From Lingula anatina (Eukaryota; Animalia; Brachiopoda), in NCBI GenBank assembly GCA_051362555.1, contig CM120641.1:44770401-44834400 (forward strand): DNA of 64,000 nt. Reading direction: 5' to 3'. Positions within the stretch are counted from its first letter, which is position 1; every line of letters begins with the position of its first letter. The notes below the pieces were generated by a model. It saw nothing but the letters and a program-made list of their open reading frames with translations, ran no database searches and had not been told where the DNA came from. This document shows positions 2,124-53,512 of the stretch, piece after piece. Made by a program: the position numbers and the translations under genes.

Positions 2124-5100
2124 TTATAGTGCAAGGAAGAATTTTTTGACATACAGGTAATAAGAAACCAAGACCCAAAAAGCAGCACCCCAAAGGTGAA
2201 CAGCCAACAGAGCACCATGAGTGCTTGGGACCTTGAACTGCACGGGAAAACAATTGGAAAACATTTCATGACACACATAGACAAGGATGGAGTTCTTCCC
2301 TGAAATGGCAAACATCAAGATTACGCATTTCCACTTAAAATAAAAAAACATCAGTGACACATCAATGATGATGGAGCTGTAGAGTATTTATGTTTAACTC
2401 AAAAGTATTTTAGTTTAACTGAAAACAGTTTCCCATCAAAATGCACACACATGTATTTCAGGATTAATGAAAATTGATGGACAACAGGAGAAAATATGAA
2501 CTGATTTTTAACACTGTAATTTCCCAATGTCCTAAATGCATGATAACATTAACAATAGGATAGTTACATGTAACATTATAAATTGATGCACATACTATTA
2601 ATGTGGCAGTAATAACTCAGGTGAAAATCAGTATATTTTTCCAAATTTGCTTCTTAATCAAACTTAACAAGTTAAGGGATGATATTGATAACAATGATAA
2701 GCATATTCACCATTAAAAGCAAACTGCAGTTAAGATTTTTTTTTTAGAAAAGCTAACTTCATTTTGATAGTCTTTTTTAAAGAAGTAAACTTAATCTAGA
2801 TGATCTCTTTTTCTAAGAAATTCAAAATAAGCTTTGACCAAATAATAATAAAAATACAATTAAAAAGAACCAAACCTACCTGGATATATGAAAGGAGCAC
2901 CTGACCAGAATTGTTTCACATCTATAAGCAGATAGCACACAATCAGCAGCAAATACGCCATAGAACCAGTGGCCAATACGAAACTGAGCGACCTAGAAAT
3001 TATTGAAGTTTATTTTAATTTAGTTTTACAAAATAAATCAAGTATGTTAGGTTCCCCTTGTTCCCCCGATGGGCAGGTTACAGTCTAGCTTTTCACAGCT
3101 ATCAATCAAGTTTCAGTCTTAAATTTAAGATATATTTTGGTTTCTTTTTTTAAAAACCCACAAGTAAATCTTTTATAAGAATGAATCTCTCCAACTCTGT
3201 TGGTATTTCTAACTTACCATAAATTTTTGTTAATTGGAACCCATCCTTTATTCTGTGAACACTTGGTCAGCAATAGTGCAAGACCTCCCTGGTAATAAAA
3301 AGAAATGATGTCAAATGCATTCTAAAATCTTATTCACTTGTGCATTTACCATTTTTCTGACAAAATAAACTATTCCCTCATCATTTATATGTATTTTTTT
3401 CCACACCTAAATCTGTCAGCCATCTTGTTCAAAACTGAAATAAAGGACATTCACTGGCTACATTAAATTGGCACATTCAACAGTAAGACCAATTCAAGGG
3501 ATGGTAACTGCCAAACTACATCACTGCAACAAAGTTTCAAAAGACAAATTACTAGTTTATACTCACAGTTAATACTGCAAACAGCATTAATCTTAATATC
3601 TTTGAACTATTTTTCCTGTATGTTATCATAATTTTTCCAGCCTGTAAAAAAATGAACAAGTGATTAGTATTATATTTTGCTTACAGATGTAATATGGTTA
3701 AGACAGCCCAGGTGAAATATTGTACTTAAAACTGAGAAAAATTCTATTCTTTCCTGATTCTCTTTATGAAAGTTTTATTTTGTTCACAGCAGTAAATTAT
3801 ATCATCAGCGTGTGTGTGTGTGTGCGTGTGTGCACGTGCACACACAGGTAAATATAAACTTATTTCAACTTACGTGCAACCCCAGGAAGCATATAAATAT
3901 TGAGGTGAGTGTTCCCAATATTCCCTCTGGATCATAAGGTAAAGTGGTGCTATAAACAAACTGAAATGGTATTGAAAGAGAGAATGTCAGGAAAAAATCC
4001 ATAACAAATCAATTCACATAACACACATGAGATTTCAACATAACTGGTATCATTTCATAAAAATTAAAAGCTGTTAACAAAATCATGTCTGTCAAAACAG
4101 TAAAAACTGTTTACTTCAAATGTGTACATTTTTATACTGTGATCTGTATGACTATTACTCTATGTATACAGTATCTGTTGGATCATAGATAAAAAATTAA
4201 AGAGTCCCAAACTTTAAACTCAAATCCACAATAATTCTACGAAGTTTCAATTCACAGCAATGCCACAGGCAAAAAAAAAAAAAAAAAAATGACTCATACT
4301 AGTAGCTTGTGCAAAAACAATCTGTAAAAATATTGAAATTACCACCAGTTGAACTAGTTACTAGTAAAATTTTTGAATTTTTTTTAACATGTTTGTGGAC
4401 AAATTTATTAGCCAATTTGTCAGGTGGCAAATATCTCAGACTGATCTGATAAAATGTTACAAGCTATTTTTGGCAATTTTTATGAGGAAAAGAGTAACAT
4501 TTAGTTTACATCCACGCACGTACAAATGCACACACAATGGCATGATTAAATGAAATACACTACGGGCAATACAAATGAAAACAGTATCTACCCTAAAGGA
4601 AGGGGATTGATATATCCTGTCCCTGCCAAGAATCCAGCGGTCTATGTACCCAGCAACTCCTCCTGTACAATTAGCGTGGGAGCCATTATAATATAAAGGA
4701 CCACCAGGACCAATGTTGCCACTTTAACATTAAAAAATAAAATAAAATAAAAATTTAAAGAAAAAAATTACATACAATAACATATGGACTTTTATTTCGA
4801 TCAAATTCTTCAAACAAATTGTAAATGGTATGTATTTAAAATAAATATCAAATATCTATTTAATGATGAAATGTTATCTAATGTGCATGCATTGCATTAA
4901 TGTGTTGTTACCACTGATGGAGAGAGAGAGAAAGAGAGAGAGCGAGGAGGAGGGAGGGCTGAAGTCCAACAGAGGGAGGGAATGAGAGAGAGAGAGAGAG
5001 AGAGAGAGAGGCAGAGGGGGGGGGGGGGACTTACATATCACAGTCTGGCACTTGAACAGCAAAAGTTACTGCTACATGAATGATGGCACAGCTTAAACCT

Positions 5101-8100
5101 ATGATCCATTCTGGCCAGTACAGCACTATGTCTCGAATTGGATGCCACCATTTGGTCTGAAAAAAAAAGGAAAAGGTGCAAAACCCAAATGTTCCATTGA
5201 TTTATCTAGCATTACAAATTATCATCCTTTCTACATTGTTATCTAAAAAGTATTGAACAGATTCTTTAAACTAGCTCATTTAGAACATTAAATATTATGT
5301 CATGAAGGCATGTACTTGAACCATCTATATTATGACAAAAAAAATTAGCAGGCACTGCAATTGCATAAAGGCAAATTTAATGGCAATTATTATCAACTAT
5401 TATCATTGGTTAATCCATGAGACACCTATTTGATCACAACTATAATCATTGCTTAATCCATGAGATATCTATTTGATCAAAGACACTGTTGCTCTTTTTG
5501 TACAAGTTTGTGCGAAAATATATTCATTTTCAATCAGTCATCACTCATTTTTTTCTTTATCCTTCATACAAATACTTGGGGCTTAACAAGTGAAAAATTT
5601 AAGATAAATGCCAAGTAAAATCAATTTATAAATACATAAAAAATACTGTTTTAAGGTGACTGTATAACAGCTGCCAACTATCCTTATTCTTGTCAGTGAT
5701 GGCTAGACAATCATTTTGACTGAAGAAAAATAATGATACCAATAAAAGCAGGGGTGATGGGAGATGTCTTTTGGGTCTTACGGAAGACAATCACAATTTT
5801 CAAGTTTTCTACTGGAAGACAGTCAAAATGAATGATGGATCAACAAAAAAGGCTATAAAAAGATTGTAGTCTGCTTGCCACTGGTCCAAGACAACTGATA
5901 AGTACACTCGGCATCAAATGGCAAAAACTTGAATCTTTAAAGGTTTCTAGTACAACTGGAAATTTAGGCGGTTGTTTTAGATTATTTTTTTACCATAATC
6001 TATATTCAGATTTCATACATGGACTCATAATTTTTTATTCAAACCAGTAAGAAGCTTTCTGAGGTCTACCAGTCAAAAGCTAAAGCCACAGACTGAGAAT
6101 GCATGAGTGATGTTTCAGAAATTGATCAAATTTACCTGCTGCGGGGGATGTGGAGCATCAATAGAGGCCAGGGAATTACTGCCAAGGGATCCGTTGATAA
6201 GCCTCATGTCGTCCTGAAAATAGCAGACTTTTGCAAAAGTTGCAAAATAGGACTTGGGTGACCAAGGAATTCATTTCAGATCCACCACAACTGATGCAAT
6301 CTGCATCTTCTCTCATCTAACACAATCACGCTTTCTCACAAATTATCTCTTTGGAATTTCTCATTGCCAAGTATGATATAAAATCCAAAGATCAACAAGA
6401 ATTATATATAGATTTTTTTTTTGACTAAGCAAGCAGAAGCATGAAGCTACAAAACTTTTAAGACAATTCAGGTTTCTATGTTCAGCATAAGTGATATGTC
6501 TCAAATAAATCTCAAATTGCTTTTGGTTCAGGGTAAAAACATTACAGCATTTAATATCAGGGTTGATATAGCTAGTTTTTTGTTATCCATAATTTTTTAT
6601 TGGTTAGACCCATAGGTGTTGCCCAATCACTGCTATAAATGGTTGCCTCTCTACAGGACTAATAATCAATTGAAACCCAGGATACAAAAGGGCAGCAGCT
6701 GATAAAAAGGTTAGGTTATGGAATTAGGAATATGTAAAAGGCTAGTTTTTCTTCTAAAAAGCACTTCTGGCAAATTACAAACCCTCAAGCCCATTAATCG
6801 TATTTTTTCACTGTCCTTTTCCCTGCCTAGGAGCAAGTCCTCGCTATTTAAATTCTTTTCCTAAAATACAATAAACAAATCCTTATTCCATATACCCAGC
6901 ATCATCTCCTCATAAATAGAGAGTTATCCTCAGCAAACGGCAGCTATAAATTTGTGAATGTATTATTAAGAACCTGAAGTAGTCCTTGACTTGCCTCCAT
7001 GTCTGCAGGATCTGGGTGGGCAAAGAACATCTCCATGACAGCCAGGACTAGGTATGTGGCAGCAAACCTTTGGAGGACGCCTGGGATACGCAACTTATCT
7101 GGTTCAGTTACTAGAAACAAAGTACAGTGTATATCAATACTGCTTTACTTCATACTTCAAATAAAGAGAGATCTGCATAATACATTTATAGATGAAAATC
7201 ACAGACAGAGAAAAGTATGAAAATAGGTGCAAGGTCATAAGTATATACATATACATGTAAATGTTTTCACATAAGATTAAAATTATGAATTTATTAGTAG
7301 AATAAAGTGATTTCTAAAAAGGGGAAAATAAAGAAACAATATCCTGATGAGAAAAAAATGACATTACAATTATAGAATAAGCATAGCAAAAAACTTCTTA
7401 AATCAGTCTACTGTAAAAGTGTTATAATAGTTAATTAACCAATAATGCGCCGTTGTAAGGGTACAATGTAGCACTTTATAATAAAGATCGTATGTGAGAT
7501 TTTGTCTAAAATCTTCCCATTTTGCCTGTGCTTTTGTTGTTACAGCTTCTGAACACAATTCTGAATATTTTGACACTATGTATAAAAGAGATATATGTAA
7601 CCACCAACTAGGCATATGCCACGTCATGCAAAAAGTGGTCTTAAAAGGGTATATTCATAAAACATTTCCAAGTTAGTAACTCAACAGAGTAACTTCAAGA
7701 ATAATGTTATGGACGCCGGAATTTATTTCAATTTGTCACAAATTCAGTTTTAACAAATTTTGAAAATAAACTTACCAGAATCCTTTGTATTGATTATTAT
7801 TCCAAGTATAAAAAGAACAACTGTTCTGAAAACTATTTTCTTCAAAATGTCCAACTTAGATACTTTGCGTTTTTTCACACCACGAAATGAGAAGGCCATT
7901 GCTGTTCCCATGATAAAAACAAACCTGTAAAGTCAGCATGATTTCATAAATTATTAGTATTTGAAAATCAATATTTCATGTCAACTTATATCGGGAAAAA
8001 AATTAAAATATAAAAAATAATTACTGAATTTAGCCATTGCACTTAATTTTGTGTTAAAAGCCATGCCAGACTATAATCTTAATATACTGCACAAAAAGTT

Positions 8101-11100
8101 TTGCTTAATAAAGTTATCATTATGACACCAATAAGGAAAATACTTTAAACACTGTATGTGAAATATATTTTACTTGTAGATTTGTTATATCATCTCATCA
8201 ACATAAACTGATGGATAATTTAAAGCCAGTGCTAAAGGACAAACCAAAAGCATGCAACTACATACAACACTTAGTACTAATTCCCAGTTAAACTATCATT
8301 TTACTCAGATGGATCAAACCCAGTGGGGACATTTGCTGAATGCAATCAGATTAACACCTCTTCTCTTGTTTCCAACATACTCATATAATCATCATTTTTT
8401 CTGTATTCTGCTAGAGCTAAGAAGAGGCATGTTTATCTGATAATAACCTGATTGTATTCAGCGAGACAGGAAACAGGGGCAGGTTTGACAAAAGAAGTTT
8501 GACCCCATTCCCACAGACACTATCGGTCTACGTAGATCCAACTCTTGTGAAGATTCTCTTTGAGTACAGTCAGCTTAACTGAATGACACGCCTAGATTAA
8601 AGCAACTACTAGCTTAAAGCAGACTAAAAATGTTAATTTTAAAGTTTAGACCCACTTTCCATCAGATAGTCTTCTGTGGACCAAAACAAGGAGTAGAGTA
8701 ATGAGAGAACATACCAAGGAAAAACAAGATCTGCTACAGTAAGTCCATTCCATGCAGAGTGGTTAAAGAACCAGTAATGACCTCCGCCATAATTCACAAA
8801 GATCATCACAGTTAGTGCTAGTCTGAAACATTAGGCAGAAACACACATAGAGCACAAACAGAAATCAGTAGCCAAATAGTTGTCACACAAAAGCAAAGAT
8901 CTGGGACCTGTTTCACAAAAAAAAAAGTCCCGTGATTTTGTCTAGCCTAACTGGCTCAAGTTAAGACGGCTAAACTCCAAAAGCCAACTACCAAATGTGT
9001 AAAATCAAACTCTGTCATGTTGGTCAAGATCTAGGTATGCTGCCCCTTAGTTTCTTTGTGAAAGACAAAATGGTTAGCTAACATTCTTTCCAGACTTTAC
9101 CAAGATCTAATTTTTTGTGAAACAGGTTCTGTAATGAAGGCAGACGGGGTGTTGTAGTCAGGTGACAGGGTACAAGAACTCTTCACAGCAGAGATGACTG
9201 AAGAAGAATCTCTGTGATTTATTCCCACTTTCTGTAGTATTTTAAAAACCAATTAATACAAAAAATGGTAAAATTTGATCATTGTCTTTTAATGAAATAT
9301 TCTACTTCCAGACATATTTTCTATATTTTAATGTTAGAAAAATGACCCTCTACAATTCACATGTGAAAATCCTTAACCTTCCCCCTTAAATATTTATTTT
9401 TATCATTTCAAGCTTTTTCACTTTTTCAGTCATCTCTCGAAAGTCTTTCTGGCAAGAAGCAACTGGTCACCTGACCACCTATCTCCAGTCACTCACCATG
9501 GGAACACCAAGTCTGCTACAGTAAGGCCATTCCATCTTGAATGACGGAAGAACCAGTATTTGCCACCCCCATAATTTACAAAGATCATTATTGTTATTGC
9601 AATGCTGAAATAGATTTAGATAAGTCATTATGTATCAATAAACTTTACTGAGATTAAAGAAGTAAACTTGTCTCTGAAAGTATAATTCCACATCTTAGAA
9701 AATTTGTGTTTTTCTCATTTGGATTAAAATCTACTTTTCATTGATAAGTGTAATCCTTGAATCCCTTACCCTCTGAAAGCATCCAGTGAGTTGAGCCTTT
9801 CCTTAGATTTATTGTTTTCTGGTTGTTCTTCATTTACAATTGTTATTATGCCAAGATCCTAAAATCAAATGCTTTGATCAATTTTAAGACAGTAATCACA
9901 ACTTCATTCTAAACAATTACTTTGAAACAGAGAGATATATCTATCTTTATATAGTAAAACTGAACAAATAAAAATAAAACCTGAAACACTTCAAAATAAA
10001 TTTTATCAGCCTTAATTGACACAAACTCAGTTAGATATTCAGTAACAAAAACATACGCCAGGATAAAAAAGTAAGCTAGAAATTCTAAACAGTTTACTTA
10101 CTGTGGTCACCAGGTGGTCAGACTGCATACAAAATAATTTGTATATATACCCTTTCCTGCAGACCAAAGATAAATTGTTTATATCATGATCAGAATAGAT
10201 AAAAAAATATAATTTTTGGATCAATTCATAAATAAAAAGAGGCAAATTTTCAAAACCATGGTCTTACTCCCAATAATTTGTTCTCCATACATTAACTGGG
10301 TTACAGATAGGTTATCCAAAGATATAGGTTGTGAATTTGCTCAGATATTATTATAAATTCTGATTAAATCTTATCCTACGGATTATACTCTCAGACGCTT
10401 GCCACATAATTTCTAATAAGGTTTTATTAATTGTCAACATTTATTTACTCAATACTAACAGTCTTTACATATAATTACCTTATTAGGAATTTCAAAAAGA
10501 TCCACAATAGAGCTAAGGCCACAAAAACTCCAATAGCAACATAGATTGCTGAAAATAAATATAATCTAAAAGGCACCATTTCCAATTTTTGTTTTGTGGA
10601 TGTACACTTTCAAAAAGGGAGAGAAAATTTACTCAAAATGACAAATAACAGATTTGTCAACTCGAATACTGACTAAAGTTTTGTCAATCACCCGTAATTT
10701 TCTCCTTTTTTGATCATTTAATACAGAAGCAAGAAACTTTCAAATCACCCTTTCACAAATAAAAAGGAGGAAATCCCATAAAGGAGGACTAATCCCATCT
10801 CTGTATTGTATGATTTAAATACTCACGTATATTACTGTCCCAGACCTCTGAATCTGGAGTAAGATTACATGTGCTATTCCCAGGTAGGTCTTTCATTATA
10901 TATAAGGAATAATTTCCACACTCTTTAAATGAAAAAGAGTCAACTCTGAAAAAAGATAACAAGTATATTTTACAATTAAATGAAATCATGTGATACAGAT
11001 ATGAAAAATTGTGAGCAGAGGTGTTATCCATTGTGAGGGGAGGAAATTGCTTGACCTGCATAAGTAGATGTTAGATCATTTTCGATCTCAAAAGCAGATT

Positions 11101-12814
11101 CAGTCCATTTTAAGACTATTGCTGTAATGATTAAGACCATGTTAGATCATTTGTTATCTAAAAATGCACTTTAAGACCAAATCAAGCACACTAGTGTCTG
11201 TAGTACCTGCATAATTCAAGGATAGTGCCATTGGGCCATGCTGCAAAAACCATCAGAGCCACTGGGTGCTGTGTATCCACTTTCAGATCAACATTTGAAT
11301 TTTGATGGAAATAAAAGACTCCCCCAGTTGAGCTGTTCAGGACAGGCTGGTACTTACACTGAAATATTAAGACAAAATGAGACATTAACCACCATTTGGA
11401 GACAACTGACTAACCAATCTGGCATATGGCTAGAAAAAATGCTTTTTACAAGAAGTTGTCAGGTTGAACTAGTGGATGTGTAAGTGGTTGTATAAGATTA
11501 TTTTACTAACTTCTATAGATAGACCTCATCTTCAAGCTGGTCAATTTTAATATTGATAAGTGCTTTCTGGGGAATTGTCTTTGTGGGATAAAAATTTAAG
11601 GTAAATACTATGAAGATATTTGGTCCATCAAATCTTTGACAACATAAATAATTTACTTTCATCACTGATATCTGAAAAGGTATAATGAATAAATCGCCTT
11701 CAAAAAAATTAAAAAAAAAAACTTTATATCTCACCAACTGAAGTTTTTTTCACTGAGGCAAATGCTTCCATTTTACTTCCACAAACTTTTTCGCAAAGAA
11801 AAGAATGAAAACCTAAGACAAGACTAAGGGTGCTTTCCCAGAGATTTAGATCGATCTAAAGATTAAGATTTAGATCTACCTAACTCCCTGGGGGTTCACG
11901 CTAAATTGCAGTCAGCCGAGCGGGCACCATAGTTAATTACCCCTTACAGCTTTTAGTAGGCGGGACAGACGCCGGCCAAGCTGACAGTAATCTAGTGAGA
12001 CTCCCCACAGGGTTAGATCGATCTAAAAATCTATGGAAATGGGGTGTAAATTATATTCTCTTTTGCTCCCTTTCAACCCATACTACCAGAAGTCAGATAA
12101 TAGATCCCTCACAATAAACAAATCATACTTCATAACAAACATCAGACTTGTATTCCAGCAAAAACTCCACAGAACTGTCTGGTTTTTCCACAGTGATATG
12201 CACATGAAGCAAAGCTTCATCCATAGTGCAGTCTGCATGGTGAGTCTCATGGACAGGGGCTACTTGGTATGCTGAAAGAACAATAATAATAATTCCAATT
12301 CCTCAGTGATAACAGTTCTTAACAATGATATAATATGCCTTCTATACATCTGCTTGTGTTAAAATGTAAGTAAAAACATATGGACAGACATAGTGATCTA
12401 AATTCAATATACTGTACAAGTAATTTGTAAGGATAACTAATAAGGTAATCGAACACTTGACAAAATTGTGCTCGAAGTTGGTTTCAAAATGTCGTGTAAT
12501 TTTGCAAACTAGAGTGCCCTAACAAGCTTCTTTTAGATTTTATATGTATTGTCTGTTCAAAGTGAAAGAGAAAACGGAAGAGAACCATAATAAAAGTGGC
12601 TTTGTCGATTCAAAACTCAGTTAAAACAAGACTTCCGCAGACGACCAAGCAATTTATACTGTTTGGCATCTATCATATTTACTCATATTTAAAGAACAGT
12701 ATAATGAATATAAACCCTCAGTCCATAAAAATACGCACCTTTAACTGGAATACACATTAAAAGTATTACAGCAAACATAGACCAAAAGAGCGTCAGCGCA
12801 CCTGCACCCGCCAT
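2124..12814 (-). CDS. HGSNAT: Heparan-alpha-glucosaminide N-acetyltransferase (lysosomal transmembrane acetyltransferase), multi-exon
   Basis: Phase-consistent exons assembled by hand: 12739-12814, 12129-12271, 11207-11358, 10827-10945, 10479-10548, 10102-10156, 9770-9858, [9497-9604 or 8715-8822], 7776-7924, 6995-7110, (6136-6213), 5035-5156, 4592-4721, 3874-3960, 3567-3641, 3218-3288, 2880-2992, 2124-2299. The translation has a signal peptide and the family motifs [19 protein letters not shown], [22 protein letters not shown], [41 protein letters not shown] and [10 protein letters not shown]. Confidence 0.97.
4982..5010. repeat. (GA)n microsatellite followed by a G-run
   Basis: Direct reading. 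Confidence 0.9.
6136..6213 (-). CDS. Candidate 78-nt cassette exon in HGSNAT ([26 protein letters not shown])
   Basis: ctattttcag acceptor, CAG|gtaaat donor, phase 0-0, no stop codon, and GC-richer than the surrounding intron. I recall no counterpart in vertebrate HGSNAT. Confidence 0.55.
8715..8822 (-). CDS. HGSNAT: HGSNAT active-site exon, copy B ([36 protein letters not shown])
   Basis: 108 nt, acceptor ctaatgtttcag (branch-point-like CTAAT), donor gtatgt, phase 2-2, open reading frame. It is paralogous to 9497-9604. Confidence 0.92.
8904..9129. mobile_element. Harbinger-like MITE / inverted repeat between the duplicated HGSNAT exons
   Basis: GGACCTGTTTCACAAAA ... TTTTGTGAAACAGGTTC is a 16/17 inverted match, with CTG at both flanks (possible 3-bp TSD). 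Confidence 0.65.
9154..9478 (-). other. Bipartite long-range intronic inverted repeat next to the donor of HGSNAT exon copy A
   Basis: 9154-9166 pairs with 9466-9478 (13 bp, one G-U in the pre-mRNA). 9190-9206 pairs with 9421-9437 (16/17). The two pairings are nested correctly for one stem. Confidence 0.8.
9497..9604 (-). CDS. HGSNAT: HGSNAT active-site exon, copy A ([36 protein letters not shown])
   Basis: 108 nt, acceptor tatttcag, donor gtgagt, phase 2-2, open reading frame in frame with both flanking exons. Confidence 0.93.
11828..12046. mobile_element. PIF/Harbinger-like MITE with TAA TSD
   Basis: TAA flanks at 11825-11827 and 12047-12049, imperfect TIRs with TAGATCGATCTA palindromes, and related copies at 23212-23539. 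Confidence 0.75.
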
Positions 12815-17760: not shown

Positions 17761-19083
17761 TCAGTTATAATATGGTTCGCTTGGATTGTCTACATCTTCT
17801 CTTCTTACAACTGGAAAAAAAACAAACATAATTATGAATACACTGCCAATGTTATTCAAACACAAATGATCAACTAGACAGCAAAGCTTGCAAACATACA
17901 GACACCAAAGAAGGAAATAAAAAAGAAACATTGCAACAATACTTACCCCCCCCCCCCCCCAAAAAAAAATTATGTATAAAAATAATCCAATCATATTGAT
18001 TTTGTTTGCCTTTTACTAAACAAGGCAACTCAGCAAATTTGTATTTAAAAAAAAATAATAAACATTGCCAAATCACAATGACACAAGTAAAAATAATCAT
18101 ATCATACTAATTTTCAAAAGATCCCTTTTTCACCACACAAAGTCACTCAGTACACACGAAGTAAAACAAATTTATGGTTTGGCAGTAACAGGGTTAACAA
18201 CAGATGTCTTAGACAGCAATGACAATGACAGAAATTGAGATTAAAATACAAACAGACTCATACAGTATCATAAAACAGGCCTAAACAAATGATTTTTTAA
18301 TATTTTTAAACCCACCAGTCTATCATTTTAAGACTGTAAGTCAATATACTTGAAGTTAATATCCAAGAGGACCGTTCAAAAAGTTCTTGGATCCCATTCT
18401 GGTCTACATGGATCGACCCAAGTCTTGACAAGTGCAATCAGCTTAACTGAATGACACACCTCCTCTTGTTTCCAACAAACTTGTAAAATCACCTGCTTTT
18501 CTGAATTCTACTTATGCTACGAGGAAGTGTGTCTTTCAGTTAAGCTCACTGCAGTCAGTCTCAGAGTCCCTTCAGAGTTTGGTCTATCCATGTGGATTAT
18601 GTCAATGGGAATGGGGCCTTGGTTTCAGCCAGAAAAAAAAAACAAACTTGTTGGTTTTACTGATATATTTTACCATTCATTCAGACTTGATATTCAAGTT
18701 TCATCAATTGCACTCAATAATGTATCTAAGTGACATTTTACCTGTATATGTCCTTACGTATTTAAAATTCTTCAATTTATAGTTAGCTTCATCTTCAAAC
18801 ATATCTTTCTTCCAAAAGTAGTATGCAATACAACCTAGAAAAAAAATGAGAACAAATCACGCTTTGAATAAACCAACTAAAATCATTATGATGAATGACT
18901 TCTGCTGAGATTTAACCTGTTTAATTGTGGAGTGTGGCGCGTGTGGAGCCAGGAAGATCATAAGAGGATTAGGCAGCCTCGCTCTCAAGTGGGTCGGCCA
19001 TATTTGATCCACAGATCAGTAAGTGCACGGATCAACTTGTTCTGAATGCACTCACAGTAGTTGTGAAATAATGCACCTCCTTT

Positions 19084-22100: not shown

Positions 22101-25100
22101 CACATTTTTCAAGTAGTTGCAAAGCTACAATTCATTAGGTACATTTTAATTAATTTAAAACATTGCAACCAAAAGGATGATATTATACAGATAAATGAGT
22201 TCAAATAAAAATTATAAAATAAAACATTTACTTAACAAAGAATTTACATCAAGATCAAATTAAGTTCGAAATAAAACACAGACGACTAACAGTTAGGAAA
22301 AAAAATTGTGAAGGTTGTCCAAATGAGCAAGGTCTATTGTTTTCAAATTTAAAAAGGGATTTATTTCATTTAAAGGATACCAACTGTTCATTTTGGCCAA
22401 AAAGTGAATTTCCCTAGGGTAAATTCCCCATACTTAACATTGGTTGATGAATCCATTTCTACATTCAAAGTCCCCGTTTTTTTTCTCACAAGTTTTTTTT
22501 TTTTTGTAATAATTATAATTATAATTATTTCAGAGCATAGCCATCTATGGTCAGGTGGCAAGCACAGAATTCAGATTAATTGCAATAACTGCCATTTTGG
22601 TGGTAAAGTAGGATATATAATAATTTTGTAAGTTGTTTACAATGCATTTATTGTGTAATATTGATCTCATAAGAAGAGTTGTTATCCCTTTAAGGTACTC
22701 TTTACAGAATACACCTGAGAAAATGAATTTTCCTCTGGAAAAAGAGCAATTTTCTCCTAATCACACATAATTGCTTGACCTGTCGATGCACTTGGAAACT
22801 TAATGTTTTATTCCAATTAATTAAAATAAATGATTTAGATCTAAAAGACTGGTCATTCATTAATTAAAATGCCATTCCGTACTGCACATTTTAGAACATC
22901 AACTTTGTTAAAATTATGATTCCTTTGGACAGATATGCAGCTTTACATAAACACAGGTACTTACACTACAGATAAAACCCTTTTATATTTTGTAGTCCAA
23001 ATAATGAACACCACATTACTTATTAATCATTCAAAAATTATTCATGTAAAACCTAGCATCATAGTACAAGTTGGTCCAAAAATTACCACGATTATCAATA
23101 ACGCGGTTTCTGTTCATTGACAGTTATTCAGGAGGGAACATGTGGTTACAATTTCAACAGAAAACAGGTTTCCTATTCATGTTCTGATTGAATTAGATAC
23201 ATTTTGCCTTAGACCCCATTCCCAGAGATTAGATCGATCCAACTAGATCGACCTAACTCCCTGGGGGTTAACGCTTAATAGCTGTCAGCCGAGCGGGTAC
23301 GAAAGTTAATTACCCCCTTATAGCTTGTAGTAGGCGGGACAGACATTTAAGCCAGATTATGTGACAGTAATCTAGTGAGACTGCCCACGGGGATAGATCG
23401 ATCGAAAATCTACGTGAATGCGAACTTAGACCCCATTTCCATAGCGCTCGGCTGACTGCAATTTAACGTGAACCCCCAGGGAGTTAGATCAATCTAAATC
23501 TTAATCTCTGGATCGATCTAAATCTCTGGGAATACACCCTTAGTGACGGTCTGCGCTCTTGAGGTGCTCTTTGGTTCTGATTTTAGACTCAATTGATGAC
23601 GGTGCCGCACACTATGGCAAATACCTCGACTAGTCTAGACCAAAATATATTGAAAAATTCTTTACTCTGAATATGGGAAATGAAACATAAGCCATTTTAA
23701 ATTTACGTCTTTATTGTCTGACCACAGGGAGCGCTAATAGGCTATAACAAACAAGTCAGCAAAGCTGTCAAATGTACAGACAAAAAAACAGGCAATAACT
23801 ATGCAGAAAATAGGCTACTGTCAATTCTGATGCAAAAGTAAATTATGTTAAACTGCAAATTCAACATCAAATTTAAATTATGCTCAACAGGTAATACCAA
23901 TGTAAGTAAAATGTGTAACAAGTTAACACTTTGAAAATGTTTAACCTCCAGAAAAAGAAGCCAATTAGACTGCTTTTCAAACTCAGGCTGCATTTTAGTC
24001 CTGTATTTCTTTTTAGAAAGTTAGGCAATCATAAGTAACATGGTTTTCCCATAATGGTCCTCATGGCAGCAGCACGTTTTTTTCAAATTTTGATGCAATA
24101 TTACATAATGTTTAACAGCATAATGACCATCAATTTTAATAATAAAATATTAGTATTATGGATATTCAGAAAATGTGACTAGCAAAGGTCTTCAGGCCCA
24201 TGGAACTTCAAAGTCACAACAACAAAAAAAGCATAACTACTACAATAGTTGCCCCGATCATGCTGATTTTCAAACATGACCTGCGTTTTATGAATATTCA
24301 TCAGCTTTGTAAATATATAGCCAAAAAGTAAAACTGCCTTCCACTTATCGTGTTTACAATGAAAGTGCATGGCGTCGGCGACAGAGACAGTGACGGCGAC
24401 GACAGACGCAGGTGATGGCAATATGTACAGACACATCTGTGCATATTTACTGTATTGTTTGAGAACAGTAAGTGACATGGTTTTTCTTAAATGGTCATTA
24501 TGGGAGCAGTGCCCAAAATAGGTTTTTTTCAAATTTTGATGCAATATTACATAATGTTTAACAGCATAATGACCATCAATTTTTAATAATAAAATATTAG
24601 TATCATGGATATTCAGAAAATGTGACTAGCAAAGGTCTTCAGGCCCATGGAACTTCAAAGTCACAACTTGAAAATGCCAAAATGTAAACAAGACAGCACT
24701 GTTCTGAAATGGGTTTTTTTTTTTTTTTTTAACAATTTTTTGAACATAAAACAAAATTAACAGGTTACTGCCATTTTTATACGATCAACTAAGAAAATTG
24801 ATGACATGGGAAAAATATCAATACAACAGTGCTGAATGTCCAATTTCCTCCATTCTGAGATTCTGAACATAGTGAATGATTGAATCTGACAAACTGCAAT
24901 GATATGAGTTTATTTCCATTTTTGAAACTTTATTACACAATACACGATAACAAGCTTACCATCATTTTTACAAAATCAACTAATAATGTTGTAAAGATGC
25001 AGGAAATGTCAACCAAACACTTTTACATATCTTATTAGTTCAATAATGAGACTGTTAACATGCCTAAGAGTTGAATCTGAGGAAATGTGAAAAAACAGCA

Positions 25101-26498: not shown

Positions 26499-28324
26499 AT
26501 GTCAGCCCACAGAGAGGGGCAACGTGAAAATAGTGCTGGTGATTTCTCTAAAATATTTGACCGCGAAGGAAAGCCTTGTAGGGCTTGCACAGACATGCAG
26601 ACTTACAGAAAGATGATGGCACTGAAATTTGGCCAGAATGTTCTGGTAGTTAAATTTTTCATTTATTTTGTAAAGTTGTACACCTTTCGCAACAGCAACA
26701 CTGTTGTTACAGTAACTGCTAGTACAAAAGCACTAGTAACGACCTCATACAGATATCCGATGGTAATTAGGAATGGTGAATCTCTGCTGATTTATAGTGT
26801 TTTTTTTAGGAAAAATTTGAGCTGTTTACAAAAATCTGGTGATCGGATTATTTTATATGAAAGTTATTGAATTTTTGTCTTTATGTATAAAAATCATTGG
26901 GTATATTGATATTACCATTCTTAATGTCTGCATGTATTCATCCTAAAACATAAGTTTCGATCTGCATTTTTTATAATTACATTCAAAATTTGCTGAGTGG
27001 CTCTGTTTGGTAAAAGAAGAAATGCTTGAAAATGCTGCTTACATTACATCCACACACACGTATCTTTGCAATGTCTTCATGATGTTGCGTCATCTTTGGT
27101 TGACATATAAGTTTGTTGCATTTTTATGTGCACATCTGTGCATGTCTTTGGCTGTCACCTAGATCAAGTCATTGAACCTTTAAACCACAGAATACAGCTT
27201 AAAAATATACCATGTCAATCAGGCCCGTAGCCGGGGGGGGGGTCTAAAGAACCGCCCCTTTTGCTGGGAAAAGGTTCACTCTGGGTAAAATTTTATCAAG
27301 GTACATGTAGTTTTTATGGGAAAAGGTCCACTTTTTCAAAAAACGAACCCCCCTTTTGAAATTGCTGGCTACGGGCCTGTCAATTATGTATGAATAAGCA
27401 AAAATGTTCATTAGGCTTGGTAGTAGGATCATAAATGAAAATATCAAACACAAGCTGAAATACTTACATACCATTAGCTTACGGCCAACCTGGACCAAAG
27501 CCTTCATCAGACTGATATGAATAGATGTTGACACTCATTGACTGCTAGTTGGTATAGCAGCAAGGACCCTCTTGCAAATGTCAGGTAACCCCCCCCTCCC
27601 CCATTCATAGGTAGCTGGTGAAGGCTGATGTTGATTGCTTCTCGTATCTTACACGATATTGATTGCTTCTCGTATCAATCAATGGATCGGATGTGATGAA
27701 CAGATCATAAAAAGTCATAAGAAATTTTTTCTTGTTCCTGAAATAAACAGTCCAATAATCATGTTTCTCATGCAACTTACAATGCACTCCAGTCTGACCT
27801 GGTAAAAGTGATATATAGGGGCCCTTCAAAATTTTGGTTGGAGTAGGCATTGGGCTGCCCCTAGGGATGGTTCTTTCTATTCTTATGTTATAACTCTTGG
27901 TATCTCTTTCTACACCATAAATTTAGGGAGTTGAAACTTTAAGAGATTGATAGACCAATCATCAGTGATATGCATGGGCACTTCAGAATTTTTTTGTACT
28001 TTGGGTGGGGCTGTCCCCAGGGATAGATGATTTTGATTTTTGGTATTGTAGTTTCAGCTATTTCCTCCTAAACCATTAGAGCGAGGACCTTCACATTTGA
28101 GGTATCATCAGGGAGTGCATGTGTACTTCAGAATTTTAGTGCATTTTGGGCCTGGGGGTGGATAATTCTGCTTTGTTTACATGAAGCACCGATACTTTTT
28201 CTTATGCTGTTATTATATACTTTTTTTTTTACATTTACATGTAGGACCCAGGCATTGTCATAGATGTCAAGGGTGGAGAAGTGCAGAGGTGTGGGGTGGC
28301 AAACTATCAACACCATTTACTTGC

Positions 28325-28365
<41 letters not shown>

Positions 28366-29354
28366 CAGGCACACAAGCAGGCACATACATCTAAAACAAC
28401 AAATCAGGTCATTGAATCTGAAGAAGTGACAGAAAGAACAGACTGCCCATTGGAAATACATGAACTTGGAAGAAACACTTGGTCATTCTTACATACTATG
28501 GCTGCTTACTATCCAGATAGGCCTACTGAAACACAGAAGGAGGACATGAAAAATTTCATGCATTTGTTTTCAAAATTTTATCCTTGTGGAGAATGTGCAG
28601 AGGATTTGCGTAGACAGTGAGTTATCGTCCAGTGTCCTTTCAGTCTGCAGTTCAACAGACCTTTTCATGCCAAATGATACATGTATCATTTTTTATATAA
28701 ATTGCAAAATACTTGGGAGGTAGATTAACAGTTTTATAGTCCGTATTGTTTGGTTGTGATTGTTGCTGGAAGCTTACTTGTGAAAGAGAGTAAAACCACT
28801 GACAGGGCAGTAACAGTCTAAGTGATTAAATACAGATACATGTCCTGCTTGAAGTGGAACAGCCTAAAATGCATTTTATCAAAATATTATTGATTGTTTC
28901 AGTTCAGTTAAGTACAGCATTACACCTAGGATTAGTTTCACATTATTTAAAGGAGTTCATTTGACTCATAATAATGGGATTTAAAAAAAATTAAGTAGAA
29001 ATACTGATAAGGAGACTGATAATTAAGTATGTTATCTCCTACATTTAGATGTCAATCATGAAGAAGGAAATAGTCAAATGCTTTTGTAAATTGCTTCTTT
29101 TTAACCACTAGAAAAAAATTAAAACTGAAAAGAAATGCTAACATATTCAGGGCTTACATTAATTGTAAATGCTGTATTTTCTTTATTTCAGAATAAAGGA
29201 AAAACCACCTACTACAGAATCCAGACATCAGTTAGCACAGTGGCTTTGTAGGATCCACAATGGAGTGAATGAAAGACTTGGGAAACCAATATTTGATTGT
29301 AGCAAAGTTGATGAAAGGTGGAGAGATGGATGGGAAGATGGAAGCTGTGATTGA
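26499..29354 (+). CDS. GFER: FAD-linked sulfhydryl oxidase ALR/Erv1 (mitochondrial intermembrane-space disulfide relay), 3 exons
   Basis: Exons 26499-26645, 28369-28616 and 29192-29354. Motifs: KPCRAC shuttle, [28 protein letters not shown] redox Cxx[21 protein letters not shown] (CX16C), [11 protein letters not shown]. Confidence 0.97.
27220..27379. mobile_element. MITE with perfect 13-bp TIRs and a 5-bp TSD in GFER intron 1
   Basis: CAGGCCCGTAGCC...GGCTACGGGCCTG, with TCAAT at 27215-27219 and 27380-27384. Confidence 0.85.
28327..28364. repeat. (TTA)n microsatellite abutting the GFER exon 2 acceptor
   Basis: Direct reading. Confidence 0.9.
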
Positions 29355-30500
29355 TGTCTACCTCTAACTGAAATCTTATCACACAAATGTATACTCCTTT
29401 TTGTCCAGTTTAAATCAAGAGAAGACTCAAATTGTGAAAAATAATGGTGGTCATTTTAGTTATGTTGGAAGCAATTTTTTATCTACCTGTTTGAGGAACT
29501 GTCAATAACAGGAAAAAAATTATCATGTTCTAAAATACATAGTGACGTTGCTCAACATGATTGTCAGTAAAATGTTTACTACTACAAATTTTATTGAATG
29601 TTTATTTTGTAAATATTTCATAAATTGGATCTTATTATTAAATATTTTTAAATTAATATAGTGTGTTGTTTTACAGAGATCTTGTTATTTGATTATTTAT
29701 CAGTCATAATTAACAAAACGCACAAAAGTATATTTGAGTTTTATTGCAATACTATGAAAGATTTAACATTTCCTTTCTGTTTTACACATTCATGTCGATC
29801 AAATTTTAGCTATTATCTTCCTTTATTGATTTTAATTAATCAGTAGACTAGCCTTCTGTCTTTTACCAACATGACTAGTTTTTGAAGTCCTCACAGGCAC
29901 TTGATTTAATATCACATTTATTACAGATGACAGAAGACTAATTTCATTCTTTTAGCTTGCCAGCTGTGGCCAAGTTTTACAGTCTGCTCCTTTCAATTCC
30001 TTTGAAATGAGTATAAATAAAAAAAACCAAACACATGTTCACAAGCAAAATTTATAGATAAAGTGGCTTTTTTCATTTTAAGATCATCATGATAGGATAA
30101 CCATTTACAAAATAATGGTCAGTTGAAACTAACAAAAATCAGTAAAATATTTTTTTAACAAAAAAGTCCAGAGGTTATTGATGTAACACCTCTCAATATA
30201 AAAGTGATATTGGTACTACTGTTGTTTATTTAAAACATTTAGTTCTTTTATTAAGTAAGTTTATTTGGCCGTACTGCACCCTTTCCTGACTTTAAAAGTT
30301 TGTTAGTCAGAACATGGGCAACAGTTTTTTCAAACACATACGTAGTTCATTATTATTTGATCCCTACCATATATGTTGGTAAAAAATTATTTATATACAT
30401 ATATAGCTATGCCTGTCCATCAATACAGGAAGCTCTCTAATACACTAGGATCCCGTATAATGAACATTAAAACAAATATTCAATATGACATCATACAAAA

Positions 30501-35869
<5,369 letters not shown>

Positions 35870-36773
35870 CTTTGGGGATGTTTTTGTGCCCTTTGCCCAA
35901 AATTCACTTCAGGTAAATTTAGAAGAAATCTGGATAGAAAAAAAAAATAAATAAAATGTGAGTGATTCACACCATTTCAAATAGTCTAAAAATATATAGT
36001 GGAACTTTAGGCAAACACATATGGCTTCTTTGAAAAGAAATTAAAACCATTAACTTTCTAGCATCCTCACACTTATAACTCTACACTGACTCTTGCCTAA
36101 GAAAATTACTTAAAATTATCTTAATATAATTATAATGGATTTTGCGCCAAATCTAATTTTTCTTGAGATAAAACACAACCATAGCTCGACTCATCCCTGC
36201 ACTTGGATTTGATGTTTTGTATCATTTCTAATGAAATTACTTTATTACTTTTATACATATCATGATCCATTCTGACCGCCACATATTCGGGTAGTCTTCC
36301 TGAACGTCAGAAATAATATCATACCGACATCAGAGATTTTTTTTCTATTTGCGGAGTTTAATTGTAAGGCCTGAACTGGGAGAAATAAGTAACTTTACAA
36401 GTTATGTCGACATAAAAATAGGACTCTGGACCGTTCTAACGCGCAGAACATAACATTAATCTGACCAAAATGGTCTACATCATTAGAAAATACCATCTTG
36501 AAAACATAGTAATTAAGACATGACACATTCCGACTCCACGGTAATTTAAAGTGCAGAGAAATAGTCAAGAAATTCTTTTACATCTTGCTGAATAGATTAA
36601 TTCCATGGTATACAAACCCAGACTACATCGCGTGACTTCTAAATCTGTAATCAACTTAGGCATTGACATGTACTGTAATTAACTCGACCTTAATCTAATT
36701 AACACAAGCAGCATATCTGCTTAACACCAGCAATGTAATAAACCCTAAACTGTTTTGAATAGGTAACACTTAC

Positions 36774-38200: not shown

Positions 38201-41200
38201 ATGGAGATATTGCATATGATCAGAGATGAACTCAATATTCATCCAGGATGCATACGACTAGTATCGTGCCATAGAGCTGTCTGCTTGGTGAGTGTTTTTA
38301 GATATCATAGCCAATACTTCAGGTCAATGTCAAGGCCAGTTTACAATATCAACAATGAAAAAAAAAATCAGATTTATGATTATAGTGTAAAGTGATTAAA
38401 CCATTCCGTTATGTTCAGCTGTTGTCACTCCATTATATATATGCAAAGAAAATTCATTTCTGTGTGATATATAATTGAAATGATCTTTTTTTAAAACCAT
38501 CGCGTATTGTTATTTGTAATCTACTCTTTTCGTGATGGAGTCAGTTGGTACGAGTAAATTATTAACGTTTACGAACGTTAATTAATTTAAGGTCAACAAT
38601 TTATACAATATTTCTTGGATAATGCCGGTTTTAAAAACTATTAAAACAAGAAAACATGAATTGATTATCTTTAGATTTGAAGTTATTAAATAAAGCTTAT
38701 CCCTGAAATTTGGAAATTTTAAAAAATACAGTGCAATGCCAATTTAATCCTGTAAAATTTTGTCAGTTTATACAGTAACTGGCTACTGTTTCTTCTATAG
38801 GCCATTGGATTCTTTGACAAGAGTATCCTTTTTTTCTGCACAGTCATTATGTGAAAAAGAGTCTTTTGGTTTTGACAATAATGGTATTCAAATGACCCAT
38901 CATACTATCATAATAAATGATTATCTAATATTATCAATGTCAGATGACATTTTGAGTGTTTTAGTAGTCAATTATTATTCAAGCCCCAATGTAACAATCC
39001 AAATTAAACACTTCAGAAGTGTCTTGATTAACAGATATTAATAATAATGAAAATTATTATTAGTTTTATTTTAATATTATTATTTTAATAATGATATTGA
39101 TAATAAATAACCATAATGAAGAAACCAACAACCATTTGTGAAAAAGTCCCACTTTGTCAATAGTGAACATTCTATATTACTTTTACAAAATATTTCATAT
39201 TATTTTTGTATGCACATGGTGGTAAACAATCCTGGTTACTTTTGTTTTAAAGGTCCAAACAGAATGGTTAAAAAAGGCATGCAACAAACACAAAATTCCT
39301 ACAGCCTCCCGATACAACCACAGCCTATCTGAGATTGAATATGAACGACTACTGGCAGCTTCTACAACCGATGTCCCTGAACCGTGGGAGCGGATCAGTG
39401 TAAAGGTCATACAGAAAAGAAATGAAAAAGTAAAATGGTAAGTTATGTGATATTTCAGAATAATATAATTTCATTTATGGTGGCAAAACTTTTCATTTAT
39501 GTACCGATATTGGTTATTTTCAGTTCAGTAGTAAATTAATGCAGTACCAATGGTAGATCTGTGCATGAAAATTGCATGTTATGAAAAAGAAAACGTGCTG
39601 CAAAAGCTACTTTATGGTAGAGTGAAAGTATGAAGTCTTATGATTTATTGTATTTTTCTTTATCAAATTTATTGATAACCCAAATTATTTATAACCCGAA
39701 AGAGAAACTTAAACCATACGTTTTTGCTTTGTTCAATAATTGAAATATGGCAAGAGGAAGTCACTTAATTTGAATGTCATCAAAATAGTACCATGTAAAG
39801 AAGTTATATTTGCATGAACATTATATAAAACCATATTGTATAACAATTATCAAAGGTTGGGGAGATGAGTGATAATAAAGCAAAATATATATATAATCTG
39901 ACTTGGATTGTTATGCCTTAGTGAAGGATAAATAAATGTAAGGACGTGCAGTTTTCTGTTTCTTTCATTTGTATCTTTTTGAATCACTTTGAATAATTGT
40001 AATCATCAGCATGCATCTGTATTACTCATCAGACAGGTGTTGTCAGTAATGTTTGGAATGGTGCTATTGCTTTGCTGGTCAAATGCATATGTTGTGCTCA
40101 TGTTGGTTATATATTTTGCAAAAATATTGATTTTTTATTCAAGCAGAATCACCATCACATTGTGAAATATATTTGACCCATAGTATTTGAAGGGTTTTAT
40201 ACTTTCTTTGAATTTTTCAGCTTTCCTGAGAGTTTTGGACTTCCTCATCTTGAAAATGGGCTGATAGATTCCTTGGCCTATGTGACAGATGAAAACTACA
40301 GACGGTCATGGCAGAATGCATTTGAAAGGTTTGGAAGCTGTGGAAGAAATCTAGAATCATCTACAGCACCTCCTGCAAAGGTATGGCATACATTTTCTCT
40401 GACTCTCTTTTGCAATGAAATCTCAAAACTTTTTGTAGGTGGGGAATTTTGTAAGAATTATGTGTAGTGTGCATTTGCTTCAATTGAAGCTATACAGTTA
40501 AAAAAAAAAAAACTTACAAATGTGCTTAGTATGTTAACTTTAAACTGTATGCCATCCATATTTTATTATTTATCAAAGGATGTTTGATTATTATTATTAT
40601 TATTATTAAATATATATTTTTTAATTTTCAGCCCTTTTGTGATTTTGTTAGAGATGTAATTCAAAGACTTCACAACTGTTCCATCTATCCACTGAAAAGT
40701 TTTGAAAACGGAAGAAGAGAAGGAGTGCCAGAGAAAGAAGAAGAACAAAATGACATCTCTCAACTGGACTCCCCACACCCAAACCTCATCCCCTTGTATT
40801 GTGCGTTTGAATCAGACAGTGCATTTTACCTTTTACAGCCATATATGACTTATTCGCTGCAAGACTGTGTCACTCTCAGTCCTGCCATATTAGGCAACTC
40901 GTATGCCAAACCACTATTCATTGTGTATCAGATCCTCCATGCATTGAGGCACCTTCACAACAAGGGGCTCTCCTTAGGAAACAGAAAACTTCGTGATATT
41001 TTAATCGATAGTAAACTTTGGGTGCAGTGCAGTTATCCTACAATGAAAAGCTTGACAGAAGATGTTCTTTATGAGTGCCAAAAAGATCCAGATGAAATAG
41101 CAGTAAATGCAGAGGGGAAAGAAGTTACCTCTTCAAACTCTTCAACTGTTTTGACAAAAAGGTGCTCAACAATTGAGAATGGCGAAAGAGGGGAGGGAAA

Positions 41201-47200: not shown

Positions 47201-49570
47201 CTGTCTGACCCTTCTCAAATACATCATCCCTTACCTGTCAGACACCACCCTCATGGACTACTTACAGGTAATGGGCACGAAAACTTTTCCAGAGATATTT
47301 ACTGTTGGTCTTCCAAATTTTCTTTTTTGATCCATCCTCCATTTTTGTCCATCTATGAACAGGAAAATAAGATGCCCGTCAGTGTAAACTTGAAAAAATT
47401 CTGAAGACCCAGAAGAGGGCCTTTTGAATTAATTTAGTATTAAATTTTAGTTTTAAGACGGTTATAATTATATAGAGAAGATCTAATGAATTTTTTTTTT
47501 TAATTTGATGTATTTAGGATGATGGAATGAAGACCACACGCAGCATATTAAAAGACATGCTGTACCCTACCATCGAACTTCTCTCCTCCACGACAATCAG
47601 TTTTCCCAGTGGAGGCCATGTGCGGAAACTCCTCTGCTACAAAGTGGTGGATGTGATCTACCTGATTTGCCTCAGGATCGGCTTTGAACAAACCAGACAA
47701 CACATGTCTCAGGTTATGCAGTGTTTCTTCCAAGTCTTTGACTTGGTGCATGAAAGAAAGCACTCAGGCAACAATGAACCAAAGAGAAGTTCTGCTACTG
47801 CCATCCCAAACAAGAAAGGTATATTATACTTGTCTGTTATTCTTTATTAAGGAATAATTTCGATTGCCATATATGTCAGTTTCCACTAAACTTTCAAAAG
47901 CATTTTGGATTTAAAATTTAATAGTTATTTGGTAAATTAATTAAATTTTTTATAAGGTTGACCAGTCGTTTTCAATTGTTATATATTATAGATTATGCTT
48001 GGTTTCTAGAGAGCCTGACAGACTCAAATGAACTATTCCTGGAGATAAAGAAGGACAGTGTCAACAATGAGTACAAGATAGGCACCCCTGTATGTGTTGC
48101 TGATTTGATAAGTCCCACAAAGTCTTTCGGCAGCTCAGGATCATGGCACAGACGCTCTCACAGCCTCACGCCTTTAGAACCAGTGGTGCCCCACTCTCAA
48201 GGTTTGTCTTGGTTAACTCTAAGGTATAATCTGTTACAGCAAAACTGTATAATCACAGTCTGATTTAGATTATGATACTTAAGTGAGCACAGAATGCTTA
48301 TCAGAGTAGACAAACTGACCAAGACATACAGAAATGCTGGTCTGCATGCATGCACATACGCACATTCTGTGCTTTTCGGTCAACATATTAATAGTCGACC
48401 AGTTGTATCTGTTCAGTGTTTTTTGCTTAGATCGCCACTTACCATTTGATTATGTTTTATCACTCAATCTTTATATTGCAGCTGATGAAGACAACCCAGA
48501 GCAGGTAGCTACCAAAGAGAAAATAATGGATGAGCTCAGGCAGACCTTTACTCCTGAGATGGCTTATACTGCTTACATACCTCTTTGCCAAGTTTATGGA
48601 GGGTAGGTTTGACCTTGACCTTTAACCTGTGACCTGACCTCAGGTTTTTTGATTGACATGTTTTCTCTCTGTGTCAGCTTGCATATGACTTATCTGAGAT
48701 GGAAGTGTTCTACCATCTTATTGAACCCTAGATTAGTATTGATGTATTGATGTTGAAAAGTCCTTTGAATTCCTTTTTCAACTGAAAATAGCCTACTATA
48801 GAAATCATAATATTTTTTCTACCTACACGTGAATCTTTTGTAAGATGTGTTGGTTTTTTCAGGATCCACATGGAACAATACCTGAAGAATGAAAGCCTGA
48901 TTCGTGAGCTGTGCACGAGACATGATGAGGAAACGTCACTGCAGAACAAAATGGACTACTCTGGAGACTCCAGTGATTCTGGGGAAAGTGATGGTTTTCT
49001 CAATGGTAAGTGAATAAAAAGCCTTGAGATAGGAGCCTGAAAAACTGACAGTTCATTTTAGATATAGGGAACCAAGCAGGTGATGGTTCATTTATTGATT
49101 TTCACATCTCACTACATCAAGTACACCAATAATGAATTTTATGAAAAATTTTCACAAACCTTCTCACTCACTACACAGACCTTCCTACTCACAGGCACAC
49201 CGGATGGTGTTAAGCCTGGATTATAAGGTTTTACACCAGAATATTACAGCCCACTGAGATGCAGACAATTGAAAGCATTGCACACACAAAATGGCTTTTA
49301 TTTTTGGGCTTAGCGAAGACTGCTACACATGGACAGCTGACTGTGCTTAGTTAACTATGCAATATTGACTGTGTTTAGCTAACTATGCAATATTAGCAGA
49401 ATAGCATTGCTGTATGGAAATGGCTTAGAATAATCATTCACATGTCGGCAGTCACAATTTGCTCTCGTGGCACAATAAAAAGACCAAAAATATGAGGTCA
49501 GAAGTCATTTGCATTATTTATAAAACTGTTCAGGTTGCTAGTCTCTGCTATAGCCTGTCTTTTTACACAT

Positions 49571-49601
<31 letters not shown>

Positions 49602-50984: not shown

Positions 50985-51040
<56 letters not shown>

Positions 51041-53469: not shown

Positions 53470-53512
<43 letters not shown>

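Follow-up and report, generated by a model that had tools for sequence, protein, structure and literature searches.

HGSNAT and its duplicated catalytic exon

The analyzed stretch of Lingula anatina DNA (64,000 nt, hereafter the window) carries HGSNAT on its minus strand. This gene encodes the lysosomal heparan-alpha-glucosaminide N-acetyltransferase, the enzyme affected in Sanfilippo C. The gene model comprises 17 exons from 12814 to 2124, and its ORF of 616 aa has a single terminal stop, whichever of two versions of the catalytic exon (A or B; Table 1) is used. The open frame needs a GC-AG intron at 6994-5157. Elsewhere in the window lie what we take to be genes for a GFER/Erv1-like protein (~26700-28620, plus strand), an ankyrin and EF-hand protein (30500-35900, minus strand), and a WDR81-like BEACH/WD protein (40530-55500, plus strand). 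Several ORF-like pieces between genes on the minus strand (~16380-14820) could be a transposon remnant, and repeating translations revealed a tandem satellite array with a period of ~145 nt (~57200-58650).

Table 1. Positions of HGSNAT exons, paired arms, and splicing elements in the window
Feature	Position	Strand	Basis or remark
Whole HGSNAT gene	2124..12814	-	Open frame with both forms; family by homology
Constitutive exon upstream of A, 89 nt, phase 2 end	9770..9858	-	RNA joints to A in 4 of 4 runs
Exon A, 108 nt, catalytic, basic residues flanking His, dominant form	9497..9604	-	RNA joints, homology
Exon B, 108 nt, intact copy, neutral residues beside His, rare in RNA	8715..8822	-	Homology, RNA
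Constitutive exon downstream of B, 149 nt	7776..7924	-	A-to-downstream-exon joints
H1 5' arm, from intron +19	9466..9478	-	Pairing scan, fold
H1 3' arm	9154..9166	-	Pairing scan, fold
H2 5' arm	9421..9437	-	Pairing scan, fold
H2 3' arm	9190..9206	-	Pairing scan, fold
H3 5' arm; 9128 mismatched in window	9111..9129	-	Pairing scan, fold
H3 3' arm	8904..8922	-	Pairing scan
H4 5' arm: exon A end and donor +1..+5	9492..9510	-	Duplex of -26.0 kcal/mol
H4 3' arm in exon downstream of B	7899..7917	-	Pairing scan; listed change at 7900 keeps a wobble pair
Proposed donor-masking arm	9131..9137	-	Unsupported; X10 substitutions at 9132, 9135, 9136
Best branch-point candidate for B, A at 8865, 43 nt from acceptor	8863..8870	-	Predicted by eye from a consensus
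Second branch-point candidate for B, 61 nt from acceptor	8883	-	Predicted by eye from a consensus

A and B are separated by an intron of 674 nt (9496-8823), the introns across the cluster measuring 165, 674, and 790 nt. Each exon has AG/GT ends and phase 2 at both ends, and the preliminary description of this DNA was thus correct in reporting lengths that are multiples of 3 and ordinary GT-AG sites. The two translations share 29 of 35 residues, and the codon differences comprise 14 synonymous and 6 nonsynonymous changes. The catalytic exon aligns with residues 277-314 of the solved human HGSNAT chains (TNAT fold), and equivalents of human N258, H269, and D279 are present in A as well as in B. 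According to PMC11357348, N258 contacts acetyl-CoA, H269 is the catalytic His, and D279 belongs to a lumenal ring of salt bridges. In the diverged RNA runs X18 and X20, no change in exon A was found among the best 40 of 64 differences, compared with 17 changes in ~365 nt of the neighboring exons (P = 0.011, among the same best 40). A and B are duplicated, apparently mutually exclusive exons. An Rfam search of 7700-10600 gave no matches at E values up to 1, and a homolog search using the exon downstream of B yielded none among 18 candidates.

Exon usage was assessed in four of the nine listed RNA runs, of which ~6, 6, 25, and 30% of the reads were covered; a joint was listed if at least 3 reads spanned it. 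Joints from the upstream exon to A were found with 8, 10, 8, and 6 reads (32 in total; two rows were summed for X18 and X20), and joints from A to the downstream exon with 3, 4, 17, and 8 reads (also 32). Within the same portions of the four runs, no A-to-B, upstream-to-B, B-to-downstream, or skipping joint was supported by at least 3 reads. Judged from binned depth, about two reads touched B, one each in X15 and X20, and ended at the B donor as a spliced read would. Both stop short of the 5' end of B, and they could have originated from A+B transcripts. We conclude that A is the dominant exon. The predicted U1 pairing is stronger for the A donor (-10.0 versus -5.3 for B). Many RNA reads partly match repeat pieces in the intron after B (8282-8670), which have a related copy near 18430-18620.

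Other animals, too, have alternative versions of the catalytic exon. Database gene models in 10 of 20 animal protein clusters include HGSNAT isoforms that differ in this exon while their flanks are identical. These clusters come from oyster, two clams, scallops, abalone (three versions), limpet, pond snail, sea urchin, and horseshoe crab, and two of the 10 clusters additionally contain an in-frame skip form. In most molluscs, one version is basic around the His and the other has an acidic pair. Compared with 9 mollusc species, A lies nearer to the basic variant in 8 and B nearer to the second-listed variant in 6. A tree of the exons, with support for 2 of 28 branches, does not separate one origin from several. 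Two spider gene models (P0139 and P0076) contain tandem copies of the catalytic exon, and a further locus (L026:50-1865) harbors about six tandem short-form catalytic exons, several of them broken; in this lineage, whose exon borders differ, duplication has taken place repeatedly. A literature search for alternative HGSNAT catalytic exons found nothing, while exon catalogues in supplements might list HGSNAT; the pair of active-site isoforms is apparently undescribed.

A split-codon stop at the A+B joint

The last two bases of A, which belong to a Trp codon, and the first base of B, an A, together read TGA. Codon 271 consequently becomes a stop upon double inclusion, and 9 exon junctions follow at distances of more than 50 nt. 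The argument that exon lengths divisible by 3 leave no role for nonsense-mediated decay (NMD) in this cluster therefore fails. Because the A+B joint reads TGA upstream of 9 junctions, NMD is able to act on double inclusion, and A+B messages would likely be removed by it, as predicted from the sequence. In PMC6071210, NMD is said not to apply to exons whose length is a multiple of 3; the A+B joint is, in principle, an exception to this rule.

All eight single-copy 108-nt exons found in metagenome loci of other animals start with a G, a base that at the A+B joint would give Trp and hence read-through; these exons represent few species and include several near-duplicates. The stop-making base is a free third position, and the probability of such a base arising by chance is ~1 in 4. 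A literature search on split-codon stops at exon joints retrieved nothing. The spider gene model P0139 joins two exon copies with a 35-residue period, without the junction residue, and gives a hint only.

Helices in and around the A-B intron

All arm sequences proposed in the preliminary description for two back-to-back hairpins in the A-B intron were found at the positions given there. H1 (9478-9466/9166-9154) has 13 bp and -22.2 kcal/mol, and H2 (9437-9425/9202-9190) has 13 bp and -19.2 kcal/mol, with 16 of 17 positions paired once it is extended to 9421/9206. The adjacent stem H3 exists as well, with a shift in register: the originally noted register (9129-9113/8920-8904) pairs 16 of 17 positions, and the best one (9127-9111/8922-8906) is fully Watson-Crick paired (17 of 17; -21.9 kcal/mol). 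H1, H3, and H2 are the three best perfect helices of this intron. Among 300 dinucleotide shuffles, the best helix was matched twice and the second and third were not matched at all. In folds of 1.1 and 1.76 kb, core pair probabilities of H1 to H3 were between 0.74 and 1.0. The folding energy of the whole intron was ordinary (z = -0.18, with 7 of 20 shuffles as good).

We compared these helices with the rest of the window. Among 188 tiles of the same size, 7 had a third helix as strong and 25 had a best helix as strong, which indicates that this genome is rich in inverted repeats; other parts of the window also contain helices of -21 to -32 kcal/mol. One background example of -21.0 kcal/mol (12121/11025) was considered as a helix closing one constitutive intron and was rejected, as an exon lies inside it. 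Three helices of the strength of H1 to H3 were found in none of the 15 other HGSNAT segments scanned, the bounds of which were approximate. H1 to H3 alone enclose 551 nt; the previously reported coverage of about 590 of 674 nt is reached (592 nt) only with the proposed extension over the donor. The remainder before the B acceptor measures 81 nt, in agreement with the ~80 nt described.

DNA reads from 4 of 11 runs (X6, X7, X10, and X11) were used for a comparison over 8895-9500. X10 represents a lineage ~10% diverged and shows 53 differences in this region, and X7, with two haplotypes, shows 29. The other-species run X11 gave no contig for the orthologous intron, and no match was obtained in 37 metagenome loci. 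For testing the arms, we used the zones 8925-9150 and 9333-9470, which are inferred to be complete among the best 40 of 64 differences, the others apparently falling close to the ends of pieces and within a bubble of low depth, and which cover 39 of the 94 arm bases in X10. In this one lineage, none of the 39 arm bases was changed, compared with 35 of 325 other bases (one-sided Fisher test, P = 0.015). Nonarm windows of 17 nt served as a control, and 49 of 261 were also free of changes in X10. No compensatory double change in H1 to H3 was present among the best 40 of 64 differences; the arms are spared in their readable part, with no covariation among the differences listed.

In detail, the 5' arm of H2 is unchanged in X10 and in both X7 haplotypes, and the adjoining 9438-9456 carries seven listed substitutions and a deletion. 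In the 5' arm of H1, 9466-9470 is unchanged in X10 and X7, and the 3' arms of H1 and H2 are unchanged in X7. The 5' arm of H3 (9111-9127) is without substitution, but in X10 it has gained 3 nt at the inner A/U end; the 3' arm of H3 is unchanged in X6 and in one X7 haplotype. A change at 9128 in X10 and X7 converts an A-C mismatch with 8905 to a G-C pair and lengthens H3 to 19 bp, which is complete in one X7 haplotype. X6 shows no listed difference, with 9108-9276 lacking cover. X7 provides no independent, arm-specific support, because it has 16 listed alleles in common with X10 and because a 132-nt invariant block common to both of its haplotypes reaches beyond the arms.

The loops of H1 to H3 carry indels and two large insertion alleles. 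Loose contig ends indicate such large insertion alleles in the H3 loop in X6 and X7, from which it follows that this loop tolerates length change. In one X7 haplotype, a MITE-like copy appears to have been inserted there, its ends matching 12043-11835 by eye; this element belongs to a MITE-like inverted-repeat family with further copies near 23200-23540. The two X7 haplotypes differ strongly over 8933-9037, one of them departing from the window at 14 places within 105 nt, which suggests deep polymorphism or a hybrid origin within one species label.

A fourth helix, H4, was absent from the preliminary description and was spotted post hoc. It pairs the end of exon A and its donor with the beginning of the exon downstream of B, at -26.0 kcal/mol. 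In comparison, 17 other junction pairs (scanned with three boundaries misplaced by one or two bases and without one of the exons) ranged from -3.9 to -12.7 kcal/mol. For the end of B, pairing with the downstream exon gives -12.5, which is not stronger than in recoded controls, with averages of -14 to -15. Synonymous recodings as strong as H4 were obtained in 22 and 15 of 5,000 cases. The exon-only part of H4 has -20.2, versus -4.5 to -15.8 in 20 loci of other organisms. The pair probability of H4 in the 1.76-kb fold is ~0.45. H4 covers the A donor, the very site that it is proposed to help, and it may be no more than a hairpin formed in the spliced mRNA. A scan of 7750-10600 for a docking site-selector revealed no element pairing alternately with both exons. 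The only strong rival partner of an H1 arm (10123-10111, in the exon 10156-10102) was rejected, being broken by a change at 10120 in X18 and X20.

Two mechanisms had been proposed for the intron fold, namely, that it masks the A donor or that it blocks A-B joining. The extension over the donor appears when the intron is folded on its own, but with exon A included, the donor bases have a better partner than 9137-9131. Moreover, this segment has three changes in 7 nt in X10, and A is dominant, which together argue against masking. Upstream of the B acceptor lies a UG-rich stretch (8900-8823) in which AG is absent from the 76 nt before the acceptor, and which may serve as a site for CELF-type regulators. 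The distance from the A donor to the predicted branch points is 613 to 631 nt in linear form and 62 to 84 nt when folded. According to PMC5740500 and PMC7969005, the steric limit between donor and branch point is ~50 nt. A steric block of A-B joining, the type represented by Dscam1 exon 17 and OGDH 4a/4b, is thus not supported, since the folded path to the predicted branch points exceeds this limit. For the same reason, the H1-H3 fold looks in this model like a permissive bridge rather than a block; it reduces the distance from the upstream donor to the B acceptor from 947 to 396 nt. Adenosines in the linker were also considered as distant branch points, but X10 carries changes at these positions, which led to their rejection.

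Models for the choice between A and B

We compared the cluster with known systems. It resembles Dscam1 exon 17.1/17.2, where the cluster likewise consists of two exons and RNA structure is present in the intron between them and in its surroundings. The preliminary description had invoked this precedent for structure combined with steric hindrance. Structure is indeed involved there, but the steric hindrance is tied to distant branch points and not to compaction by the fold (PMC7969005), whereas the branch points predicted for HGSNAT lie 43 to 61 nt from the B acceptor. The balancer helices of Dscam1 are more similar: they are noncompeting long-range helices, some with exonic arms as in H4, and they raise inclusion of downstream exons, offsetting the advantage of the proximal exon, as proven by compensatory mutants (PMC12962786). 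They differ in that they operate with a docking site and dozens of exons, while HGSNAT has two exons, no docking site found in our scan, and predicted helices. That helices can bridge splice sites is described in PMC11802352.

Human ATE1 exons 7a/7b are also comparable: ATE1 encodes an enzyme, its cluster consists of two exons with an intronic element lying between them, and exclusivity and isoform ratio are governed by separate modules; in ATE1, however, competing pairs hide one 3' splice site or the other (PMC7797038). In HGSNAT, by contrast, the scan revealed no conserved competing partner, and both acceptors are located outside strong helices. In exclusive exons enforced by NMD, double inclusion likewise leads to a premature stop, which arises there from a frameshift according to PMC6071210 and PMC5740500, whereas in HGSNAT it is an in-frame split-codon stop. 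At the protein level, exons 6a/6e of coq-2 are alike: in several invertebrate phyla, these exclusive exons of equal length alter the core of an enzyme. For coq-2, PMC7434440 demonstrates a substrate switch, while for HGSNAT a functional difference is suggested from the charge beside the His alone. Taken together, the A/B cluster works like known structured exclusive clusters, except for the steric block and the docking selector, which were not borne out.

A and B are likely a new structured mutually exclusive pair backed by NMD. As to the division of labor, we tentatively favor, at slightly less than even confidence, that NMD is the safeguard against double inclusion and that RNA structure sets the ratio. 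H1 to H3 would fold during transcription and bring the B acceptor closer to the upstream donor (path reduced from 947 to ~396 nt), which could help the distal B to compete, in the manner of the Dscam1 balancer helices. H4 may later tether the end of A to the downstream exon, looping B out and favoring A. The strength of H4 (-26.0 for A versus -12.5 for B) is in line with the 32 A joints versus ~2 B reads. The two isoforms would differ in charge at the mouth of the lumenal active site, and they may differ in substrate or pH behavior.

The main competitor, which we regard as possible but doubtful, holds that the helices are neutral, stemming from chance or from decayed inverted repeats of a repeat-rich genome, and that splice-site strength and proteins choose the exon while NMD clears A+B messages. 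It is consistent with the ordinary energy of the whole intron (z = -0.18), with the tiles that match the third (7 of 188) and the best helix (25 of 188), with the helices of -21 to -32 kcal/mol elsewhere, with the absence of covariation among the differences listed, and with a predicted U1 pairing that favors A. However, the X10 changes avoid the arms (0 of 39 versus 35 of 325) and cluster beside them (9438, 9440, and 9416), the 9128 allele repairs a mismatch, and the three helices tile the A-B intron, nested and end to end. We consider H1 to H3 to be real and, fairly probably, under selection.

The original model, in which compaction bars joint occupancy of the A donor and the B branch point, or the donor is masked, so that A-B joining is blocked before NMD, now seems unlikely to us. 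It would fit with the lack of a listed A-B joint in all four RNA runs, with the removal of 551 of 674 nt by the helices, and with the position of bulky helices 18 nt from the donor and ~20 to 40 nt from the branch-point candidates; but the 62- to 84-nt path is longer than ~50 nt, the masking arm is changed in X10, the absence of A-B reads would already be explained by NMD, and the depth was too low for rare joints at a threshold of at least 3 reads. It is very unlikely, in our estimation, that the fold instead bridges the A donor to the B acceptor for regulated unproductive splicing, with the TGA triggering NMD, HGSNAT output dropping, and B being partly a poison exon. An open path of ~123 nt in the folded intron, the junction stop, the rarity of B, and the lack of a listed upstream-to-B joint are compatible with such a role; against it stand the intact catalytic sequence of B, the excess of synonymous (14) over nonsynonymous (6) differences to A, and the B-type single-exon isoforms annotated in other species.

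Least probable of all, and scarcely credible, is the reading in which one or both of the stems are the terminal inverted repeats of a MITE, co-opted or tolerated. The preliminary description had suggested this for the second stem. Similar elements do exist nearby (12043-11835 and 23200-23540) and also between duplicated HGSNAT exons of another animal. In that locus (L035), two tandem 77-nt HGSNAT catalytic exons (645-1258) are separated by an intron filled by a TA-flanked inverted-repeat element with a 26-bp helix (z = -10). Without this element, the intron would consist of 41 nt containing a branch-point-like motif. In the present intron, however, there is no internal palindrome, and the only candidate for a target-site duplication was a 2-nt flanking repeat, seen for one of four choices of ends. 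No other copies of the arms were found within the 64-kb window, and there was no pileup of foreign contigs: the 4, 13, and 4 contigs over the intron in three whole-genome runs are explicable as alleles of the HGSNAT locus, although arms of 13 to 19 nt alone would escape this contig test.

A more extended scenario, which we regard as rather unlikely in its entirety, is that the catalytic exon was duplicated once or repeatedly in molluscs, chelicerates, and echinoderms, giving two charges at the active-site mouth, and that here the choice is made by a four-helix switch, in which the intron hairpins would favor B and the exon-exon helix A, together with a selected split-codon stop.

Exons with lengths divisible by 3 can still be policed by NMD if the joint codon is a stop, which is checkable across all such clusters. 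With introns of 165, 674, and 790 nt, the cluster is a compact minigene target outside insects and vertebrates for distinguishing hairpins that tune from hairpins that enforce. The natural basic and acidic variants beside the catalytic His would, in addition, probe the recognition of the sugar acceptor by HGSNAT.
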